A DNA stretch of 64,000 nucleotides from Mobula hypostoma (GCF_963921235.1 NC_086107.1:107882001-107946000), one strand, 5' to 3'. Shown: positions 9,311 to 51,700, counted from the stretch's first letter. The notes: a model not told the origin generated them from the sequence alone. Numbers and translations: made by a program.

Positions 9311-9451
9311 AAACGCAAACAACAGGAATTCTGCAGATGCTGGAAATTCAAGCAACATACATCAAAGTTGCTGGTGAACGCAGCAGACCAAGCAGCATCT
9401 GTAGGAAGAGGTGCAGTCAACGTTTCAGGCTGAGACTCTTCGTCAGGACTA
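9311..9451 (-). mobile_element. PLE terminal fragment including hammerhead motif
   Basis: Nearly identical to 9704-9832; flanked by actatct direct repeats. Confidence 0.8.
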
Positions 9452-9796
9452 TCTCGCTGTTTTGCTCTTTTTTTGCACTACTTATAATAATTTATATATA
9501 ATTCTTACTGTAATTTATAGTGTCTTTATGTATTGCACTGCAGTGATGCCACAATCTTCATGACATATGTCATCATCATCATCATCAGGTGCCATACCCA
9601 GTTTGAGTTTTGACTGCCATGGCCCACACACTCCTGTTTCGGGTCAAGTGGATCAATTCATTGGTATTCATTTCCAGTTCTCTGGCTGCTGCCTCCATTA
9701 TCAACAGGAATTCTGCAGATGCTGGAAATTCAAGCAACATACATCAAAGTTGCTGGTGAACGCAGCAGGCCAAGCAGCATCTATAGGAAGAGGCGC

Positions 9797-9832
9797 AGTC
9801 GACGTTTCAGGCCGAGACCCTTCGTCAGGACT
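9797..9832 (-). ncRNA. Minimal type I hammerhead ribozyme (PLE-associated)
   Basis: AGUC CUGACGA AGG-gucucgg-CCU GAAA CG UC GACU on the minus strand. Confidence 0.8.
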
Positions 9833-10123
9833 AACTGAAGGAAGAGTGAGTAAGGGATTTGAAAGCTGGAGGGGGAGGGGGAGATGCAAAATGATAGGAG
9901 AAGACAGGAGGGGGAGGGATAGAGCCGAGAGCTGGACAGGTGATAGGCAAAAGGGGATATGAGAGGATCATGGGACAGGAGGCCTAGGGAGAAAGACGGG
10001 GGGGGGGACCCAGAGGATGGGCAAGAGGTATATTCAGAGGGACAGAGGGAGAAAAAGGAGAGTGAGAGAAAGAATGTGTGCATAAAAAGGAGTAACAGCT
10101 GGGGTACGAGGGGGAGGTGGGGC

Positions 10124-11162
10124 CTAGCGGAAGTTAGAGAAGTCAATGTTCATGCCATCAGGTTGGAGGCTACCCAGACGGAATATAAGGTGTTGTTCCT
10201 CCAACCTGAGTGTGGCTTCATCTTTACAGTAGAGGAGGCCGTGGATAGACATGTCAGAATGGGAATGGGATGTGGAATTAAAATGTGTGGCCACTGGGAG
10301 ATCCTGCTTTCTCTGGCGGACGGAGCGTAGATGTTCAGCAAAGCGGTCTCCCAGTCTGCGTCGGGTCTCACCAATATATAAAAGACCACATCGGGAGCAC
10401 CGGACGCAGTATATCACTCCAGTCGACTCACAGGTGAAGTGATACCTCACCTGGAAGGACTGTTTGGGGCCCTGAATGGTGGTAAGGGAGGAAGTGTAAG
10501 GGCATGTGTAGCACTTGTTCCGCTTACACGGATAAGTGCCAGGAGGGAGATCAGTGGGGAGGGATGGGGGGGACGAATGGACAAGGGAGTTGTGTAGGGA
10601 GCGATCCCTGCGGAATGCAGAGAGAGGGGGGGAGGGAAAGATGTGCTTAGTGGTGGGATCCCGTTGGAGGTGGCGGAAGTTACGGAGAATAATATGTTGG
10701 ACCCGGAGGCTGGTGGGGTGGTAGGTGAGGACCAGGGGAACCCTATTCCTAGTGGGGTGGTGGGAGGATGGAGTGAGAGCAGATGTACGTGAAATGGAGG
10801 AGATGCGTTTAAGAGCAGAGTTGATAGTGGAGGAAGGGAAGCCCCTTTCTTTAAAAAATGAAGACATCTCCCTCGTCCTAGAATGAAAAGCCTCATCCTG
10901 AGAGCAGATGCGGCGGAGACGGAGGAATTGCGAGAAGGGGATGGCGTTTTTGCAAGAGACAGGGTGAGAAGAGGAATAGTCCAGATAGCTGTGAGAGTCA
11001 GTAGGCTTATAGTAGATATCAGTGAATAAGCTGTCTCCAGAGACAGAGACAGAAAGATCTAGAAAGGGGAGGGAGGTGTCGGAAATAGACCAGGTAAACT
11101 TGAGGGCAGGGTGAAAGTTGGAGGCAAAGTTAATAAAGTCAACGAGTTCTGCATGCGTGCAG
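10124..11162 (-). pseudogene. PLE RT thumb/linker plus GIY-YIG endonuclease, 5'-truncated (left arm, frame open)
   Basis: ...FLDL...YYKPTDSHSYL...SHP...CKRNKCYTC...FTCESTGVIYCVRCSRCGLLYIGETRRRLGDRFAEH...LGSLQPDGMN. Confidence 0.9.
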
Positions 11163-12207
11163 CGCTGCTTCCTGCACGCATGCAGAACTCGTTGACTTTA
11201 TTAACTTTGCCTCCAACTTTCACCCTGCCCTCAAGTTTACCTGGTCTATTTCCGACACCTCCCTCCCCTTTCTAGATCTTTCTGTCTCTGTCTCTGGAGA
11301 CAGCTTATCCACTGATATCTACTATAAGCCTACTGACTCTCACAGCTATCTGGACTATTCCTCTTCTCACCCTGTCTCTTGCAAAAACGCCATCCCCTTC
11401 TCGCAATTCCTCCGTCTCCGCCGCATCTGCTCTCAGGATGAGGCTTTTCATTCTAGGACGAGGGAGATGTCTTCATTTTTTAAAGAAAGGGGCTTCCCTT
11501 CCTCCACTATCAACTCTGCTCTTAAACGCATCTCCTCCATTTCACGTACATCTGCTCTCACTCCATCCTCCCACCACCCCACTAGGAATAGGGTTCCCCT
11601 GGTCCTCACCTACCACCCCACCAGCCTCCGGGTCCAACATATTATTCTCCGTAACTTCCGCCACCTCCAACGGGATCCCACCACTAAGCACATCTTTCCC
11701 TCCCCCCCCTCTCTCCGCATTCCGCAGGGATCGCTCCCTACACAACTCCCTTGTCCATTCGTCCCCCCCATCCCTCCCCACTGATCTCCCTCCTGTTATC
11801 CGTGTAAGCGGAACAAGTGCTACACATGCCCTTACACTTCCTCCCTTACCACCATTCAGGGCCCCAAACAGTCCTTCCAGGTGAGGCATCACTTCACCTG
11901 TGAGTCGACTGGAGTGATATACTGCGTCCGGTGCTCCCGATGTGGCCTTTTATATATTGGTGAGACCCGACGCAGACTGGGAGACCGCTTTGCTGAACAT
12001 CTACGCTCTGTCCGCCAGAGAAAGCAGGATCTCCCAGTGGCCACACATTTTAATTCCACATCCCATTCCCATTCTGACATGTCTATCCACGGCCTCCTCT
12101 ACTGTAAAGATGAAGCCACACTCAGGTTGGAGGAACAACACCTTATATTCCGTCTGGGTAGCCTCCAACCTGATGGCATGAACATTGACTTCTCTAACTT
12201 CCGCTAG
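11163..12207 (+). pseudogene. PLE RT thumb plus GIY-YIG endonuclease (right arm, locally frameshifted)
   Basis: Same protein split into ORFs 11467..11784 and 11881..12207 by an extra C near 11705 and a 4-bp deletion near 11795. Confidence 0.9.
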
Positions 12208-12499
12208 GCCCCACCTCCCCCTCGTACCCCAGCTGTTACTCCTTTTTATGCACACATTCTTTCTCTCACTCTCCTTTTTCTCCCTCTGTCCCTCTGAATA
12301 TACCTCTTGCCCATCCTCTGGGTCCCCCCCCCCCGTCTTTCTCCCTAGGCCTCCTGTCCCATGATCCTCTCGTATCCCCCTTTGCCTATCACCTGTCCAG
12401 CTCTCGGCTCTATCCCTCCCCCTCCTGTCTTCTCCTATCATTTTGCATCTCCCCCTCTCCCTCCAGCTTTCAAATCCCTTACTCACTCTTCCTTCAGTT

Positions 12500-12535
12500 A
12501 GTCCTGACGAAGGGTCTCGGCCTGAAACGTCGACT
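12500..12535 (+). ncRNA. Minimal type I hammerhead ribozyme (PLE-associated)
   Basis: agtc ctgacga agggtctcggcct gaaa cgtc gact: helix I AGUC/GACU, intact core, loopless palindromic stem III (ACGU). Confidence 0.8.
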
Positions 12536-13129
12536 GCGCCTCTTCCTATAGATGCTGCTTGGCCTGCTGCGTTCACCAGCAACTTTGATGTATGTTGCCT
12601 CCATTATCATTTGTTTTTGCCTTCCTCTTGCTTTCTTACCTTCAATACTTTCCCATAATTACCGTGCATTGTAACTCCTCTTTCCTAATCACATGTCCAA
12701 TGAAGTTATGTTGTCTTTTCATGATCTCATACATTATTCCTCTTTTTGTGTTTGCTCTGTTCATGACATCCTCGTTAGATATTCGTTTCGTCCATGATGT
12801 TCTTTGCATCCTCCTCAAAAAACGCATCTCTGCTGCTACAATTCCTTTCCTCATGTTACTAGATATTGTCCAACGTTCTGAGCCATATAACATAACTGGA
12901 TAAACGTAACATTTCAGTACTCTGAGGCGGGTTGTCATGCCTAGTTTAGTACTGGCTACTTAGGAAGCTGGGTGACATCAGATGGCAGGTGCGACTTGGA
13001 CATCAAAAGAAGAATAGGGATGGCAAAAGACACCTTTACGAGAATGACATATGTCAGTGATATTAAACTTGATTCTGATTTATCTATTTATTTATTTGTT
13101 TGTTTACTTTTATTTATTTATTTTTATTC

Positions 13130-13375
13130 AGCTACAGCAGAGAACAGGCCCTTCTGGCCCTTCTAGATGTGCCACTCAGGAATGGCTCTGATTTAATCCT
13201 AGCTTAATCATAGGACAATTTACAATGACCAATTAACCTACCAACTGCTACATCTTTGGACTGTGGGAGGAAACCCACGCGGTCACAGGGAGAACGTACA
13301 AACTGCTCGGAGGCAGTTGCAGAAATTGAACCCAGGTCACCGGTACTTTAAAGCATTGTGCTAACCATTGCGCTA
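13130..13375 (-). mobile_element. V-SINE (HE1-like)
   Basis: ctttggactgtgggaggaaacccacgcggtcacagggagaacgtacaaact plus tRNA-like head ttgaacccagg. Confidence 0.7.
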
Positions 13376-13419
13376 ACGTGACGATTCCAACAAACACACT
13401 ATGGTTTTGCAATGCTGGG

Positions 13420-13650
13420 CGAGGGATTGGACCCAGGGCTTTTGGGGATGGTGTGGGTTGTGGGAGTTGCTCTGTCCTTGTTTACGACAGTGGCCAGAAA
13501 ATATTTTTATGTTCACCCAACAGGGGATACAGGGTTTTGGTTTAACTTTTCGCTCAAAAGTCAGAACCTTCAACAGTGGGCTGCCCTGGGTGCTTCCACA
13601 AGGTGTGCCCCGGCTGTAAGGTGGAACTTGAATCTGGCAACAGAGAGCAT
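13420..13650 (-). mobile_element. Old Deu-domain SINE remnant
   Basis: ggtttaac...caaaagtcagaaccttcaacagtg...gtggaacttgaa resembles the reverse complement of the Deu body and head. Confidence 0.45.
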
Positions 13651-13865
13651 CTACGAGAACATTAATAACCCTGACGGGAATGTGCTTGTCTGCTGCGGAG
13701 CACACGGTATGTTAGAATAGGATTTTTGACCAGCTGCTTAGCTGTGAGACAGTCCTGCCCGACGCTCATGTTCATGGCTGCTTGAGATTTACTGGACAAT
13801 GGCTAGGGGACTTGAAGTTATTCGTGATCTAAGTATTAAGTAGAGGCACAATTAGAAATGGAAAA

Positions 13866-14468
13866 GAAGATGGCAGCGCGATGCAGCGCGCGCAGCTCTC
13901 CGGTGAAATGATATCGTATCTGTTAAATAGGGGCCGTGGGCAATTCTGATTTGATGAAGACAGACGTGAGAAGCAGGGGAACACCTGGAGAAATTTCTGA
14001 AATGCCTGGTTCGCTGCTGTTGTTACTGTGCGATCGAGGATCTTCGGAGGGTAGGCCCCAAAATCCCCGGCTTTGCCTGCTGCTGAGGTCGAAACTTTCG
14101 GATAGAGATGGTACTCGGTACTCGGGATCGGAGAGCTGATCAGAGCTCGAAGTTTTTCAGACGACTCAGTCGGACTGTGGTCGGGCATGGCAGGGAGAGT
14201 TTTCTTCCTTCTCCTGTCTGCGTGAGATGTGGGACTTTGGAGGAACTTTGAACTTTTTTACTGTGCCATGGACTGTTCTTCATCAAGTTATGGCATTGTT
14301 GCACTGTTGTAACTATATGTTATAATTATGTGGTTTTGTCAGTTTTTTCAGTCTTGGTCTGTCCTGTGTTTTTGTGATATCACACCGGAGGAATATTGTA
14401 TCATTTCTTAATGCATGCACTACTAAATGACAATAAAAGAGGGCTACGTGTCCTCATAATCTAATCTA
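13866..14468 (+). mobile_element. ~620-bp CpG-rich non-autonomous retroelement (family copy 2)
   Basis: Starts aagatggcagcg, ends aataaaagagg...cataatctaatcta; homologous to 4322-4956 and 26155-26800. Confidence 0.8.
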
Positions 14469-31710: not shown

Positions 31711-33058
31711 TGTCATGGTCCGGTCCGTGAAGTCCATATTCCGGTTCACGGTCCGGTCCATCGACGCTTGCTCCAGGTTTTCCTGTCTACCCTGTTTCTG
31801 TTCTTGTTGAGCTCTAATTGAGTCAGCTGATGCTCGTTGGGGCTGGCTGCATAAATATCTTCAGAGACCAGGGCGTGACTGCTGGATTATTCTTGTCCTT
31901 ACTCCTTGTATCCCTTCCTCTGCCTTCTGTTTCCTCGCCTGAAGCCCTGCCTTGTCTTGCCGGTAACTCTCGCCTCACCTGAAGTTCTCGTCTCGCCTTG
32001 CATTGCCTGAAGCCTTGCCTTGTCTTGCTGGTAACTCTTGCCTCGTCCCGCCTGCAGTCTTGTCCTGGAGCCACCCTGTACCTAGCTCCCTTCCTGTCCC
32101 TTGCCTCCATTGGGTAAGCCAGGCCGTATTGCCGTTACCTGCGGTTGGTTCTGTCCCTTCCTGTCCCTTGCCTCTGTCGGGTGGTGATCCGCGCCCTGCC
32201 CAGGAGGAGCCTCTAGCCTCCAGCCTCCAGCCAAGCCTCTAGCCTCCGGCCTCCAGCCAAGCCTCACCTCTGGTCTCTAGCCTCAAGCCTGAAGACTCCA
32301 GCCTCCTGCCAAGCCTCAAGCCTGAAGACTCCAGCCTCCTGCCTAGCCTCAAGCCTGAAGACTCCAGATTCCTGCCAAGCCTCAAGCCTGAAGACTCCAG
32401 CCTCCTGCCTAGCCTCAAGCCTGAAGACTCCAGCCTCCTGCCTGGCCTCAAGCCTAAAGACTCCAGCCTCCTGCCTAGCCTCAAGCCTGAAGACTCCAGC
32501 CTCCTGCCTAGCCTCGTCTGAAGACTCCAGCCTCCTGCCTAGCCTCAAGCCTGAAGACTCCAGCCTCCTGCCTAGCCTCGTCTGAAGACTCCAGCCTCCT
32601 GCCTAGCCTCAAGCCTGAAGACTCCAGCCTCCTGCCTAGCCTCGTCTGAAGACTCCAGCCTCCTGCCTAGCCTTAAGCCTGAAGTCTCCTGCCTCCTGCC
32701 AAGCCTCGCCTCAAGTCTCTAGTCTCCTGCCTCCTGCCAAGCCTCGCCTCAAGTCTCCTGCCTCCTGCCGCCTCGCCTCAAGTCTCTAAGACTCCAGCCT
32801 CATCCTGCCTGCCAGCCAAGCCTCGTCCTTGCCTAGTTCTGGGGTCCGAGCCAGAGGCAAGACCCAGGTACTGGGTCCTTGTCCAGTCTCTGGCTCGGAG
32901 TCCAAGCCTGGGCTCCTAGCTCTCTTGTCCGGTCCTGTTCCGGGTTCCCGGTTTTCGAGTCCATGTCCTTGCCCTCACACTGTATCCTAGTCCTGTCCCT
33001 AGTCCTTCAGAGTCTGTGTCTTGCACTTGGGTCCGTTCCCAGCCACCTCCATATGACA
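31711..33058 (+). mobile_element. Solo LTR, Gypsy/Ty3 type
   Basis: TGTCA...TGACA termini; 5-bp TSD gataa at 31706-31710 and 33059-33063; TATA-like cataaata near 31850; ttgcacttgggtcc U5-like motif. Confidence 0.85.
32210..32825. repeat. 33/31-bp minisatellite inside the LTR
   Basis: Unit gcctcaagcctgaagactccagcctcctgccta with 31-bp variant gcctcgtctgaagactccagcctcctgccta. Confidence 0.95.
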
Positions 33059-33239: not shown

Positions 33240-34562
33240 ACTACAGACTGGTGGCATTGACCTCCCACATCATGAAGACCCTGGAGAGACTTGTTCTGGA
33301 GCTGCTCTGGCCTATGGTCAGGCCACACTTAGATCCCCTCCAGTTCGCCTACCAGCCCCAACTAGGAGTTGAGGATGCCATCGTCTACCTGCTGAACCAT
33401 GTCTACGCCCACCTGGACAAGCCAGCGAGCACTGTGAGGGTCATGTTTTTTGACTTCTCCAGTGCGTTAAACACCATCTGCCCTGCTCTGCTGGGGGAGA
33501 AGCTGACAGCGATGCAGGTGGATGCTTTCCTGGTGTCATGGATTCTTGATTACCTGACTGGCAGACCACAGTAAGTGTGCTTGCAACACTGTGTGTCCGA
33601 CAGAGTGATCAGCAGCACTGGGGCTCCACAGGGGACTGTCTTGTCTCTCTTTCTCTTCACCATTTACACCTCGGACTTCAACTACCGCACAGAGTCTTGC
33701 CATCTTTAGAAGGTTTCTGATGACTCTGCCATAGTTAGGTGCATCAGCAAGGGAGATGAGGTTGAGTACAGGGCTATGGTAGGAAACTTTGTCACATGGT
33801 GTGAGCAGAATTATCTGCAGCTCAATGTGAAAAAGACTAAGGAGGTGGTGGCAGACCTGAGGAGAGCTAAGGCACAAGTGATCTCTGTTTCCATCCAGGA
33901 GGGTCAGTGTGGACATGGTGGAGGATTACAGATACCTGGGGATATGAATTGACAATAGACTAGACTGGTCAAAGAACACTGAGGCTGTCTGCAAGAAGGG
34001 TCAGAGCCGTCTCTATTTCCTGAGGAGACTGAGGTCCTTTAACATCGCTGGACGATGCTGAGGATGTTCTACGAGTCTGTGGAGGCCCATGCTATCATGT
34101 TTGCTGTTGTGTGCTGGGACAGCAGACTGAGGGTAGCAGACACCAACAGAATCAACAAACTCATTCGGAAGGCCAGTGATGTTGTGGGGATGGAACTGGA
34201 CTCTCTCACGATGGTATCTGAAAAGAGGATGCTGTCCAAGTTGCATGCCATCTTGGACAAAGTCTCCCATCTACTACATAATGTACTGGGTGGGCACAGG
34301 AGTACATTCAGCCAGAGACTCGTTCCACCGAGATGCAGCACAGAGCGTCATAGGAAGTCATTCCTGCCTGTGGCCATCAAACTTTACAACTCCTCCCTTG
34401 GAGGGTCAGACACCCTGAGCCAATAGGCTGGTCCTGGACTTATTTCATAATTTACTGGCATAACTTACATATTACTATTTAATTATTTATGGTGCAACTG
34501 TAACGAAACCCAATTTCCCTCAGGATCAATAAAATATGACTATGACTATGACTATGACTATA
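33240..34562 (+). mobile_element. Rex1/Babar LINE, 5'-truncated RT pseudogene
   Basis: ALTSHIMKTLERL...LDPLQFAYQ...VRVMFFDFSSALNTI; GAPQGTVLS; (CTATGA)n tail. Confidence 0.9.
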
Positions 34563-35026
34563 ACCCTCTATTTTTCTTCAATACCCCTAGTATATGTGTC
34601 TCTACCATCAACTTTGGGAGTGCATTCCATGCACCTACTACTCACTCCGTAAAAAAAACTTACCTCTGGCACCCCAACCCCCCATACTTTCCTCCAATCA
34701 CCATTCAAATATCCCCTCTTATATTTGCCATTTTCACCCTGGGGAAAAGTCTTTGGCTGTCCACTTAATCCATGACGCTTATCATCTAATGCACCTGTAT
34801 CAAGCCATCTCTCATCCTCCTTTGCTCTGGAGAGAAAAGCCCCAGCTTGCTCAACCTATTGCCATAAGAAATGCTCTCCGGCAGAATCCTGGTAAATCTC
34901 CTCTGCATCCCTCTAAAGCTTCCACATCCTTCCTATAATGAGGCATCCAGAAATGAGATCTGCATTTATAAGAAGTCAACTGTTTAAGTCATTCGTGCCC
35001 CGCTCACCCAGGACATGTCCTCTTCT

Positions 35027-37526
35027 ACATAGAACATAGAACATAGAATAGTACAGCACAGTACAGGCCCTTCGGCCCACATTGTTGTGCCGACCCTTAA
35101 ACCCTGCCTCCCATATAACCCCCCCCCCGCCTTAAATTCCTCCATATACCTGTCTAGTAGTCTCTTAAATTTCACTAGTGTATCTGCCTCCACCACTGAC
35201 TCAGGCAGTGCATTCCACGCACCAACCACTCTCTGAGTAAAAAACCTTCCTTGAATATCCCCCTTGAACTTCCCACCCCTTACCTTAAAGCCATGTCCTC
35301 TTGTATTGAGCAGTGGTGCCCTGGGGAAGAGGCGCTGGCTGTCCACTCTATCTATTCCTCTTATTATCTTGTACACCTTTATCATGTCTCCTCTCATCCT
35401 CCTTCTCTCCAAAGAGTAAAGCCCTAGCTCCCTTAATCTCTGATCATAATGCATACTCTCTAAACCAGGCAGCATCCTGGTAAATCTCCTCTGTACCCTT
35501 TCCAGTGCCTCCACATCCTTCCTATAGTGAGGCAACCAGAACTGGACACAGTACTCCAAGTGTGGCCTAACCAGAGTTTTATAGAGCTGCATCATTACCT
35601 CATGACTCTTAAACTCTATCCCTCGACTTATGAAAGCTAACACCCCATAAGCTTTCTTAACTACCCTATCTACCTGTGAGGCAACTTTCAGGGATCTGTG
35701 GACATGTACCCCGAGATCCCTCTGCTCCTCCACACTACCAAGTATCCTGCCATTTACTTTGTACTCTGCCTTGGAGTTTGTCCTTCCAAAGTGTACCACC
35801 TCACACTTCTCCGGGTTGAACTCCATCTGCCACTTCTCAGCCCACTTCTGCATCCTATCAATGTCTCTCTGCAATCTTTGACAATCCTCTACACTATCTA
35901 CAACACCACCAACCTTTGTGTTGTCTGCAAACTTGCCAGTCCACCCTTCTACTCCCACGTCCAGGTCGTTAATAAAAATCACGAAAAGTAGAGGTCCCAG
36001 AACCGATCCTTGTGGGACACCACTAGTCACAATCCTCCAATCTGAATGTACTCCCTCCACCACCACCCTCTGCCTTCTGCAGGCAAGCCAATTCTAAATC
36101 CACCTGGCCAAACTCCCCTGGATCCCATGCCTTCTAACTTTCTGAATAAGCCTACCGTGTGGAACCTTGTCAAGTGCCTTACTAAAATCCATGTAGATCA
36201 CTTCCACAGCACTATCCCCATCTTTATGCCTGGTCACCTCCTCAAAGAACTCTATCTGGCTTGTTAGACACAAACTGCCCTTCACAAAGCCATGCTGACT
36301 GTCCCTGACCAGACCATGATTCTCTAAATGCCCATTGATCCTATCTCTAAGAATCTTTTCCAACAGCTTTCGCACCACAGGCGTAAGGCTCACTAGTCTA
36401 TAGTTACCTGGACTATCCCTACTACCTTTTTTGAACAAGGGGACAACATTCGCCTCCCTCCAATCCTCCGGTACCATTCCTGTGGACAACAAGGACATAA
36501 AGATCCTAGCCAGAGGCTCAGCAATTTCTTCCCTCACCTCATGGAGCAGCCTGGGGAATATCCCGTCAGGCACTGGGGACTTTTCCATCCTAATGTATTT
36601 TAACAGCTCCAACACCTCCTCTCCCTTAATAACAACATGCTCCAGAACATCAACCTCACTTATATTGTCCTCACCATCATCAAGTTCCCTCTCATTGGAG
36701 AATACCGAAGAGAAGTATTCATTGAGGACCTCACTCACTTCCACAGCCTCCAGGCACATCTTCCCACCTTTATCTCTCATCAGTCCTACCTTCACTCCTG
36801 TCATCCTTTTCTTCTTCACATAATTGAAGAATGCCTTGGGGTTTTCCTTTACCCTACTCGCCAAGACCTTCTCATGCCCCCTTCTTGCTCTTCTCAGCCC
36901 CTTGTTAAGCTCCTTTCTTGCTTCTCTATATTCCTCAATAGACCCATCTGATCCTTGCTTCCTAAACCTCATGTATGCTGCCTTCTTCCACCTGACTAGA
37001 TTTTCCACCTTACTTGTCACCCATGGTTCCTTCACCCTACCATTCTTTATTTTCCTCACCGGGACAAATTTATCCCTAACATCCTGCAAGAGATCTCTAA
37101 ACATTGACCACATGTCCATAGTACATTTCCCTGCAAAAACATCATCCCAATTCACACCCGCATGTTCTAGCCTTATAGCCTCATAATTTGCCCTTCCCTG
37201 ATTAAAATTTTTCCTATCCTCTCTGATTCTATCCTTTTCCATGATAATGCTAAAAGCAAGGGAGCGGTGGTCACTGTCCCCCAGATGCTCACCCAGTGAG
37301 AGATCTGTGACCTGACCCGGTTTGTCACCTGATACTAGATCTAGTATGGCATTCCCTCTAGTCGGCCTGTCAACATACTGTGACAGGAATCCATCCTGGA
37401 CACACTTAACAAACTCTGCCCCATCTAAACCATTGGAACTAATCAGGTGTCAATCAATATTAAGGAAGTTAAAGTCACCCATGATAACAACCCTGTTATT
37501 TTTGCACCTTTCCAAAATCTGCCTCT
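35027..37526 (-). mobile_element. Young CR1 LINE, 2.5 kb (EN end through RT, frameshifted)
   Basis: ORFs 36094..37242 (382 aa) and 34984..36066 (360 aa): PEDWREANVVPLFKKG, SQHGF, SGVPQGSVLGP, FADNTK; (TATGTTC)n tail; inserted into a Rex-type tail. Confidence 0.95.
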
Positions 37527-40320: not shown

Positions 40321-41370
40321 CAGAATGCAAGGCGGTGACTAGTGGGGTACCGCAAGGCTCAGTGCTGGGACCCCAGTTGTTTACAATATATATTAATGAC
40401 TTGGATGAGGGAATTAAATGCAGCATCTCCAAGTTTGCGGATGACGCGAAGCTGGGCGGCAGTGTTAGCTGTGAGGAGGATGCTAAGAGGATGCAGGGTG
40501 ACTTGGATAGGTTGGGTGAGTGGGCAAATTCATGGCAGATGCAATTTAATGTGGATAAATGTGAAGTTATCCATTTTGGTGGCAAAAATAGGAAAACAGA
40601 TTATTATCTGAATGGTGGCTGATTAGGAAAAGGGGAGGTGCAACAAGACCTGGGTGTCATTATACACCAGTCATTGAAAGTGGGCATGCAGGTACAGCAG
40701 GCGGTGAAAAAGGCGAATGGTATGCTGGCATTTATAGCGAGAGGATTCGAGTACAGGAGCAGGGAGGTACTACTGCAGTTGTACAAGGCCTTGGTGAGAC
40801 CACACCTGGAGTATTGTGTGCAGTTTTGGTCCCCTAATCTGAGGAAAGACATCTTTGCCATAGAGGGAGTACAAAGAAGGTTCACCAGATTGATTCCTGG
40901 GATGGCAGGACTTTCATATGAAGAAAGACTGGATGAACTGGGCTTGTACTCGTTGGAATTTAGAAGATTGAGGGGGGATCTGATTGAAACGTATAAGATC
41001 CTAAAGGAATTGGACAGGCTAGATGCAGGAAGATTGTTCCCGATGTTGGGGAAGTCCAGAATGGGGGCCACAGTTTGAGGATAGAGGGGAAGCTTTTTAG
41101 GACCGAGAGTAGGAAAAACTTCTTCACACAGGGAGTGGTGAATCTGTGGAATTCTCTGCCACAGGAAACTGTTGAGGCCGGTTCATTGGCTATATTTAAG
41201 AGGGAGTTAGATATGGCCCTTGTGGCTACGGGGGTCAGGGGGTATGGAGGGAAGGCTGGGGCGGGGTTCTGAGTTGGATGATCAGCCATGATCATGGTGA
41301 ATGGCGGTGCGGGCTCGAGGGGCCGAATGGCCTACTCCTGCACCTATTTTCTACGTTTCTATGTTTCTAT
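40321..41370 (+). mobile_element. Young CR1 3' fragment
   Basis: SGVPQGSVLGP...KFADDAKLGG; TSD ccctttt at 40314-40320 and 41371-41377. Confidence 0.93.
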
Positions 41371-45395: not shown

Positions 45396-45455
45396 TCTAT
45401 TCCCTTGGCTTATTTGCCCTCTGCAAATGTATTATCTGATTATGTATATTGAATT

Positions 45456-45627
45456 AACACACATCAAAGTTGCTGGTGAATGCAGCAGGCCAGGCAGCAT
45501 CTCTAGGAAGAGGTACAGTTGACGTTTCAGGCCGAGACCCTTCGTCAGGACTAACGTGCTGGTGAACACAGCAGGCCAGGCAGCATCTCTAGGAAGAGGT
45601 ACAGTCGACGTTTCAGGCCAAGACCCT
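45456..45627 (-). mobile_element. Tandem (86-bp period) PLE terminus with hammerhead
   Basis: tgctggtgaa...gacgtttcaggcc(g/a)agaccct repeated at 45471 and 45557. Confidence 0.85.
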
Positions 45628-46428: not shown

Positions 46429-47328
46429 ACACTCACAACACGCTGGAGGAACTCAGCAGGTCAGGCAGCATCAGTGGAAAAGATCGGCTAACGTTTCGGG
46501 CCGGAACCCTTCATCAGGTCTGAAGATGGAAGGGGCAGAGGCCCTATAAAGAAGGTGGGGGGAGGTGGGAAGGAGAAGGCTGGTAGGTTCCAGGTGAAAA
46601 ACCAGTAAGGGGAAAGATAAAGGGGTGGGGGAGAGGAAGCAGGGAGGTGATAGGCAGGAAAGGTGAAGAAAGAATAGAGGAAAACACAATGGGTAGTAGA
46701 AGGAGGCGGAACCAAGAGGGAGGAGGTAGGCAGCTGGGGGAGGGGGCAGAGTGACATAGGGATAGAGGAAGGGAGGGGGAGGGAATTACCGGAAGTTGGA
46801 GAATTCTATGTTCATACCAAGGGGCTGGAGATTACCTAGATGGTATATGAGGTGTTGCTCCTCCAACCTGAGTTTAGCCTCGTCATGGCAGTAGAGGAGG
46901 CCATGTATGGACATATCTGAATGGGAGTGGGAAGCAGAGTTGAAGTGGGTGGCAACCGGGAGAACCTGTCTGTTTTGGTGGACGGAGCGGAGGTGCTCGA
47001 CTTTTTCCCCTTTCTTCTACTACCCATTGTGTTTTCCCCTATTCTTTCTTCACCTTTCCTGCCTATCATCTCCCTGCCTCCCTTCCCCCACGCCTTTATC
47101 TTTCCCCTTACCGGTTTTTCTCCTGGAACCTACCAGCCTTCTCCTTCCCACCCTCCCCCCACCTTCTTTATAGGGCCTCTGCCCCTTCCCCCTACAGTCC
47201 TGACGAAGGGTTCCGGCCCGAAACGTCGACCGATCTTTTCCACTGATGCTGCCCGACCTGCTGAGTTCCTCCAGCATGTTGTGAGTGTTGCTTTGACCCC
47301 CGCATCTGCAGATTATTTTGTGTTTTAC
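46429..47328. mobile_element. Second inverted-pLTR PLE, nested in the tail of the preceding PLE
   Basis: 46429-46705 is the reverse complement of ~47010-47290; the spacer holds the GIY-YIG C-terminus (-); possible ggtg TSD. Confidence 0.85.
47196..47231 (+). ncRNA. Minimal hammerhead ribozyme
   Basis: gtc ctgacga agggttccggccc gaaa cgtc gac. Confidence 0.75.
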
Positions 47329-50884: not shown

Positions 50885-51700
50885 CTGAGGCTGAGTACAG
50901 GGCTACGGTAGGAAACTTTGTCACATGGTGTGAGCAGAATTATCTGCAGCTTAATGTGAAAAAAACTAAAGAGCTGGTGGTAGACCTGAGGAGAGCTAAG
51001 GTACCGGTGACCCCTGTTTCCATCCAGGGGGTCAGTGTGGACATGGTGGAGGATTACAAATACCTGGGGATACGAATTGACAATAAACTGGACTGGTCAA
51101 AGAACACTGAGGCTGTCTAGAACAAGGGTCAGAGCTGTCTCTATTTCCTGAGGAGACTGAGGTCCTTTAACATCTGCCGGACGATGCTGAGGATGTTCTA
51201 CGAGTCTGTGGTGGCCAGTGCTATCATGTTTGCTGTTGTGTGCTGGGGCAGCAGGCTGAGGGTAGCAGACACCAACAGAATCAACAAACTCATTCATAAG
51301 GCCAGTGATGTTGTGGGGATGGAACTGGACTCTCTCACGGTGGTGTCTGAAAAGAGGATGCTGTCCAAGTTGCATGCCATCTTGGACAATGTCTCCCATC
51401 CACTACATAATGTACTGGGTGGGCACAGGAGTACATTCAGCCAGACTCATTCCACCAAGATGCAGCACAGAGCGTCATAGGAAGTCATTCCTGCCTGTGG
51501 CCATCAAACTTTACAACTCCTCCCTTGGAGGGTCAGACACCCTGAGCCGATAGGCTGGTCCTAGACTTATTTCATAATTTACTGGCAAAATTTACATATT
51601 ACTATTTAGCTATTTATGGTTCTATTACTATTTATTATTTATGGTGCAACTGTAACGAAAACCAATTTCCCCCAGGATCAATAACGTATGACTATGACTT
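50885..51700 (+). mobile_element. Rex1/Babar LINE 3' fragment
   Basis: WCEQNYLQLNVKKTKELVVD...YKYLG; near-identical to 33760-34560. Confidence 0.9.

Follow-up and report, generated by a model that had tools for sequence, protein, structure and literature searches.

Positions 9704-12598 of a 64,000-nucleotide stretch of Mobula hypostoma DNA (the window) are occupied by two 5'-truncated copies of a Penelope-like element (PLE), which lie head to head inside one target duplication and form a palindrome with a 9-nt spacer. The locus belongs to a published type of insertion, of which it stands at the long-arm, short-spacer end, and is a dead insertion without demonstrated function. As its origin we favour, with modest confidence, a model in which reverse transcription was primed on both target strands and the two resulting cDNAs were then joined end to end.

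Anatomy of the insertion

The arms are reverse complements that differ in a global alignment by 8 substitutions, all eight of them transitions, and 3 indels, two of 1 nt in G/C runs and one of 4 nt at 10536-10539; BLAST gives 99.0% identity across 1431 columns. The features of the locus are as follows (coordinates are those of the window).

9563..9703, minus strand: host LINE-like repeat, 3' end with (TGA)n tail (empty-site translation)
9690..9703, plus strand: left copy of the 14-bp target-site duplication (word search)
9704..9733, minus strand: 30-nt PLE tail, left arm only (alignment)
9734..11162, minus strand: left arm, 5'-truncated PLE copy with its 3' end outward (alignment, BLAST)
9796..9833, minus strand: left minimal type I hammerhead motif (motif scan), predicted cut after 9801
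10124..11161, minus strand: 345-codon open frame to its natural stop (translation)
10196..10420, minus strand: left-arm match to PF01541 (Pfam, E 2e-4, 22.1 bits, just below the 22.6 cut-off)
10502..10528, minus strand: CX4CxxC linker of Neptune/Nematis type (residues 212-220 of the left-arm translation)
11163..11171, plus strand: 9-nt spacer, cgctgcttc (alignment)
11172..12598, plus strand: right arm, 5'-truncated PLE copy without tail (alignment)
11911..12138, plus strand: right-arm GIY-YIG domain (Pfam PF01541, E 3.7e-5, 24.4 bits, above the cut-off)
12499..12536, plus strand: right minimal type I hammerhead motif (motif scan), predicted cut after 12531
12596..12609, plus strand: right copy of the target-site duplication, its first 3 nt being the element's last 3 nt
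12596..13050, minus strand: host LINE-like repeat, upstream part (translation, empty-site reconstruction)

The window contains the 14-mer tgcctccattatca at two places, 9690-9703 and 12596-12609, and a word search of the window's minus strand returned none. Besides the 3 nt shared on the right, the last 2 nt of the left copy probably also match the end of the element's tail, as judged against one tailed solo copy at 9320; because of these overlaps the duplication proper measures 9-14 bp. The tail itself is 30 nt long, or 32 nt counting the 2 nt common to the target; it recurs in the solo copy at 9322-9454 and in the contig data is the PLE family's loose end behind 12598. Beyond 11162, contigs of the family (run X2, 44 records) extend upstream across the RT YIDD motif, and their register is that of the spacer. 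Thus the spacer represents the 5' continuation of the right arm itself, G11162 is common to both readings, and both arms are cut just after the catalytic motif. The sequence-only reading had described a near-perfect palindrome with about ten differences, this very spacer, 30 extra terminal nucleotides on the left arm as in the known inverted PLE arrangement with a one-sided 30-40-nt tail, and a single insertion within one 14-bp duplication. Each of these points holds, with the additions that the spacer proves to be element sequence and not foreign DNA and that the interrupted host repeat rejoins across one duplication.

Element and coding content

By its linker and domain order the insert is a Neptune/Nematis-type PLE. 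The left-arm frame, which lacks a start of its own, covers the end of the RT palm, the thumb, a linker and the endonuclease, so that the proposed span of the inversion over RT thumb and GIY-YIG region is correct, with the linker between them. As in EN+ PLEs, a C-terminal GIY-YIG endonuclease lies behind the RT thumb, and a CxxC sits between GIY and YIG as part of a CCHH set whose two histidines were chosen by eye from the same translation. Atlas neighbours of the element carry HTH_animal and GIY-YIG (score 0.97). According to the available part of PMC8557442, a CX2-5CxxC linker between RT and EN marks Neptune/Nematis and is absent in Penelope/Poseidon.

The arms start directly after the YIDD motif, and the insertion contains no RT core. 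The whole RT-EN frame that follows a direct pLTR in an autonomous PLE is missing here, because both arms are 5'-truncated and the right arm is frameshifted by one extra nucleotide near 11709 and by the loss of 4 nt at 11795, which are present in other copies of the family. With neither an RT core nor a promoter-proximal ORF start, the inserted copy is dead. The family is evidently very large, since the arm's summed depth exceeds that of the single-copy flank by four to five orders of magnitude, a ratio that is not a copy number.

The interrupted host repeat and the reality of the locus

When the insert and one copy of the duplication are removed, a minus-strand frame continues across the site and ends in a stop followed by a (TGA)n tail. 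The host repeat is high-copy in its right part (high summed depth across 12606-13070), and by its motifs we take it to be the 3' end of an RTE-type LINE; Pfam and Atlas returned no name for it, and the 64-kb window holds no second copy for comparison with the empty site. The insertion target is an old LINE remnant.

An origin of the palindrome as a fold-back read or assembly artefact is very unlikely, because the host repeat rejoins on removal of the insert and the flanks are not mirror images (the best local match within 2 kb has 17 columns). Moreover, the arms differ at 11 places, a 4-nt loss among them, the tail is one-sided, the spacer is element sequence in register, and the host repeat is collinear across a single target duplication. 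The argument made earlier from arm differences and duplication points the same way. What speaks for an artefact is that none of the contigs listed spans the centre or the right junction. Contigs from four runs were compared over 11118-13900, on the right side of the insert only, and no bridging contig was found among the 32 pieces listed (there are 396,668 more, and the abundant family swamps locus-specific records); an empty site in organism B was likewise absent from the listed contigs, with the same swamping. The single-copy right flank (13277-13894) is matched without a difference across 618 nt in runs X1 and X2, which represent one sample, perhaps that from which the assembly was made.

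Hammerhead motifs and a read-through transcript

The hammerhead motifs of the two arms are identical, with cores at 9828 (minus) and 12504 (plus), and comprise the conserved core, helices I and II and a palindromic minimal helix III; in the left motif helix I has 5 bp and a palindromic ACGT replaces helix III. The palindrome had been described as capped by two hammerheads: each arm does carry a motif, but 60-100 nt inward from its end, and the two motifs are on opposite strands. The scan found 5 hammerheads in the window, all at PLE ends, and 0 in 50 shuffles, and Rfam at its gathering threshold gave no match in the window. As a monomer, the motif is predicted to adopt a fold other than that of a hammerhead, with a stability not exceeding that of shuffled sequences (z -1.24). 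According to the parts of the sources available, minimal PLE hammerheads are inactive in vitro as monomers and weak as dimers (PMC4209133), and hammerhead cleavage is dispensable for PLE insertion in vitro (PMC11167929). The hammerhead of the solo copy at 9320-9454, the helix II of which is weakened, and the left-arm motif stand in tandem on the minus strand, the arrangement that a dimeric hammerhead needs.

A read-through RNA is predicted to form a single hairpin with about 1,430 pairs (-3114 kcal/mol), in which all 38 of the 38 motif bases pair with the other arm. The suggestion that such a transcript could be trimmed at its 3' hammerhead is not borne out by this model; trimming would be unlikely because the motif is fully paired, monomers of this kind are inactive in vitro (PMC4209133, in the part available) and cleavage is dispensable for insertion. 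On both sides the element's sense direction points away from the centre. In Drosophila, siRNAs match the inverted regions of long inverted Penelope copies (PMC3681739, in the part available), and by analogy a hypothetical read-through transcript here might give rise to siRNA. The dsRNA hairpin and siRNA substrate proposed earlier thus agree with the predicted fold and have a Drosophila precedent, and the idea is for that reason not new. In run X9, guessed to be RNA, there was no depth over the single-copy flank bins 13443-13814, a result that speaks neither for nor against transcription.

Source lineage and age

Within the arm we compared 29 listed family-variable sites (the table has 81 more rows). 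Three of them are arm differences and 2 adjoin a homopolymer indel, and at the remaining 24 of 24 both arms carry the same letter, which at four of these sites has less than 10% of the summed depth. Given this agreement, rare letters included, both arms derive from one young source lineage. Among 13 rows picked by eye for comparison of depth between organisms A and B, the window's letter accounts in 6 for 19-55% of depth in A versus 0.03-2.1% in B, which suggests that the subfamily spread after the A/B split. The arms diverge by 8/1429 or 0.56% (95% range 0.24-1.1%), and organisms A and B by 14/614 or 2.3% in the flank; if the arms were identical at insertion, the age of the palindrome would be about a quarter of the A/B split time, and differences between the templates of the arms would imply a younger palindrome. 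The left arm carries the family majority at the three listed arm differences and at the 4-nt indel, so that the polarised changes are three of the 8 arm substitutions and this indel.

A signature of editing or deamination in the arm differences was considered and rejected. On the element's sense strand 7 of the 8 differences are C/T, and 3 of 8 fall at CpG; the skew is unremarkable (about 0.3, calculated by hand) because that strand is C-rich and G-poor (37% C versus 15% G). Five of the 8 differences (9952-11025 against 11309-12380) would give A-C mismatches in a plus-strand hairpin RNA. An A-C mismatch is a context favoured by ADAR, and base composition explains this skew well enough.

Other repeats in the window

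A second, older head-to-head PLE pair lies at 46429-47320, with arms 92% alike over 284 nt; its 293-nt spacer of element sequence belongs to the tailless left arm, and the tail is on the shorter right arm. No target duplication was found around it, the best common word having 7 nt. The solo tailed 3' fragment at 9320-9454 is 95% identical to the family and lies 382 bp left of the palindrome on the strand of the left arm; the search for a target duplication gave a best common word of 5 nt and thus no duplication. Two further short PLE 3' fragments (45438-45627) form a partial tandem 86 nt apart. On the minus strand, 34987-37449 is a fairly intact LINE with adjoining frames of 451 and 369 aa, the RT domain halves being split at one codon. 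In addition, the window contains a minisatellite with a 31/33-bp unit in about 15 copies (32199-32773) and two pairs of young repeats, one inverted and 38 kb apart (2016-2444 and 40639-41067, 98%) and one direct and 17 kb apart (34047-34493 and 51176-51620, 96%). Among 135 of the 249 stop-free frames of at least 75 aa that were scanned with Pfam, a scan which short exons would escape, we found no host gene; the 7 matches were all of RT or ALKBH8_N type, the latter presumably LINE-associated.

Origin of the insertion

The unit is the product of a single insertion event, and its course may be reconstructed as follows. A young, very abundant Neptune/Nematis-type PLE would have entered an old LINE remnant in one retrotransposition event, in which the element's enzyme would have nicked both target strands 9-14 bp apart. 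Reverse transcription would have been primed from both target 3' ends, aided by the 2-3 nt matches, for the left arm at the tail-end start site and for the right arm at an internal start site 30 nt upstream. Synthesis of both cDNAs, from one source lineage and possibly from one RNA, would have ended immediately 3' of the RT catalytic motif; since the two cDNAs have the same sense, pairing between them would have been limited to a short self-complementary word, where they would have been joined and filled in. The junction would reflect either 9 bases left unpaired at joining or a zero-spacer GCGC join that lost 7 nt, by a slip or by later deletion. If one RNA was copied twice, with the second enzyme displacing the first cDNA, near-equal stops could have resulted.

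We favour such double priming because a single duplication encloses both arms and the host frame rejoins, because neither arm is contained in the other (the left has the tail, the right has the spacer), because both outer junctions share 2-3 nt with the target, and because the arms agree at all of the 24 variable sites compared. Solo copies at 45448 and 59342 are tailless and end at nearly the same internal site as the right arm, so that the tailless end forms without a partner arm. Furthermore, in the available part of PMC11167929 a PLE protein cut and extended both target strands in vitro, and RT began at two sites that delimit the tail, the protein being modelled as a dimer. Copying one RNA twice would mean that the tailed arm is never the longer one, and in both pairs of the window (n=2) the tail is on the 5'-shorter arm, a weak pattern with only two cases, the second of which is old (92%) and has yielded no duplication. 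Double priming is weakened, on the other hand, because two independent cDNAs of 1.43 kb are unlikely to end no more than 9 nt apart, because the in vitro data come from a Poseidon-clade and not a Neptune element, and because the left microhomology rests on one other copy. Near-equal stops would need a common RNA end or stop, which is hypothetical. The left arm ends at the base of a native hairpin of the element (11149-11162, 5-bp stem and 4-nt loop), which may be an RT pause site.

The near-equal arm lengths and the shared rare letters would be explained at once if the template had been copied only once and its end had folded back to prime the second arm, the product being integrated as a hairpin. 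This could have happened by fold-back of the cDNA or by self-priming on antisense RNA, the latter being how junction palindromes at inverted PLEs are read by Arkhipova et al. 2013 (PMC3846280, in the part available). We regard such snap-back, in either variant, as a serious competing account, though possible rather than probable. As the arms stand, neither is contained in the other, although a later loss of 7 nt from the left arm would allow the right to have been copied from it. The direct join has 1 common nt, and a zero-spacer GCGC join leaves no fold-back loop, whereas any hairpin keeps 4-5 nt unpaired (PMC8053094, in the part available). In addition, the tailless end is a start site used by solo copies.

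That a single PLE copy was later duplicated in inverted orientation, by fold-back during replication or repair, appears quite unlikely. Fold-back inversions are known in yeast at inverted repeats of 5-9 bp with spacers of 3-12 bp (review PMC7999016, in the part available), but here the boundary is the element's own internal start site with no flank included, and a single target duplication, set in a collinear host repeat, encloses the entire unit. It is highly improbable that two insertions entered one site independently and were homogenised by gene conversion between the arms: in favour are the high abundance of the family and a further 3' fragment at a distance of 382 bp, yet one target duplication encloses both arms with none at the centre, and the arm differences are spread evenly along the arm (KS p = 0.59).

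In L1 twin priming, both target strands serve as primers, and microhomology joins the cDNA ends within a single target duplication. The pieces of such an inversion copy different parts of the RNA and form no palindrome, whereas here both arms copy the same 3' part of 1.43 kb; an inversion of the L1 type was rejected on this ground.

The centre and the stability of the palindrome

The inverted junction contains a perfect 10-bp palindrome (11159-11168) with GCGC at its centre, and GCGC at 11162-11165 is a native self-complementary word of the element. The junction can be read as a direct join with 1 common nt, which is common by simulation (exactly 1 common nt in 4,291 of about 26,500 close joins), or equally as a zero-spacer GCGC palindrome minus 7 nt between two GCAG words of the left arm. 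Among simulated junctions along the arm with spacers of 1-20 nt, 131 of 26,640 (0.5%) fit the latter description, and 1.2-4.3% fit five looser versions of it. Because the pattern was noticed first and tested afterwards, it is only a lead. We consider it no more than a tentative proposal that the locus started out without a spacer, as a palindrome formed when two equal cDNA ends annealed at GCGC, and persists through a one-sided 7-nt deletion.

In yeast, spacers of up to 8 bp block replication forks, and a 9-bp spacer cuts breaks by 80% and abolishes fork pausing (PMC8053094); a perfect palindrome of a mouse transgene was stabilised 25-fold by small central deletions (review PMC8701086, which cites Akgun 1997 and Cunningham 2003). 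In other work forks were still stalled by a 12-bp spacer (review PMC7999016), so that a site with a 9-nt spacer need not be inert. These statements follow the parts of the three sources that were available. The cruciform extrusion suggested earlier finds no support and is doubtful, because of the 9-nt spacer, of a length that removed fork pausing in yeast, and a centre of 65-73% G+C.

Relation to known insertions and implications

Inverted EN+ PLE insertions, described in the available parts of Craig et al. 2021 (PMC8557442) and, for Pen2a_Av and its kin, of PMC3846280, resemble the present locus in their head-to-head 5'-truncated copies, a tail of 30-40 bp at one end, one variable target duplication, a short junction palindrome and a hammerhead in each terminal repeat. 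In the rotifer insertions (PMC3846280) a long copy is accompanied by an inverted part of pLTR size (181-218 bp), whereas the two copies of the present locus have almost coincident truncation points, with 1.43 kb inverted and a 9-nt gap. Penelope in transgenic Drosophila melanogaster (PMC3681739) likewise has long inverted repeats in the element body, but these are fresh insertions of the insect Penelope clade, whereas the present locus is known from DNA alone. For PAc, a Poseidon element of Anolis carolinensis (Frangieh et al. 2024, PMC11167929), cutting and extension of both strands, as we propose here, and two RT start sites that delimit the tail, matching the two ends of our locus, are reported; PAc is of another clade, and its RT starts without homology to the cut DNA, in contrast to the 2-3 nt common at both ends here. 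Metazoan PLE hammerheads (Cervera and De la Pena 2014, PMC4209133) share with ours the short helix I, the palindromic minimal helix III and the dimer type, and their opposite-strand dual motifs are about 100-700 bp apart, compared with 2.7 kb in the present pair. A small one-sided central deletion like those of the mouse transgene palindrome (PMC8701086) would yield the present junction; the mouse deletions were observed directly, whereas here deletion is one reading of one junction. These comparisons, too, are with the available parts of the papers.

PLE copies that lie head to head and carry a tail on one side are described as frequent, and junction palindromes (PMC3846280) and opposite-strand hammerhead pairs (PMC4209133) have already been published, as the available parts of both papers show. 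A kilobase, near-zero-spacer PLE palindrome of a vertebrate was not found in the titles and abstract openings searched, a coverage that excludes subscription journals. The inversion, called unusual in the sequence-only reading, is therefore not so as an arrangement, and the word applies only to the combination of long arms and short spacer.

In the available part of Craig et al. 2021 (PMC8557442), the formation of inverted PLE insertions is stated to be still undefined. The locus is a clean data point on how PLEs make such insertions, and it also bears on how kilobase palindromes with tiny spacers last in the vertebrate germline. One locus answers neither question, but all the pairs in the assembly could. 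If the zero-spacer reading is true, the 9-nt gap would lie just past the spacer length that blocks forks in yeast, and the PLE pairs of the genome would constitute a dated natural series in which spacers below 9 nt disappear as the pairs grow older. From the junctions of the pairs and the positions of their tails one could then read the second half of PLE integration, with two reverse transcriptases on one RNA.
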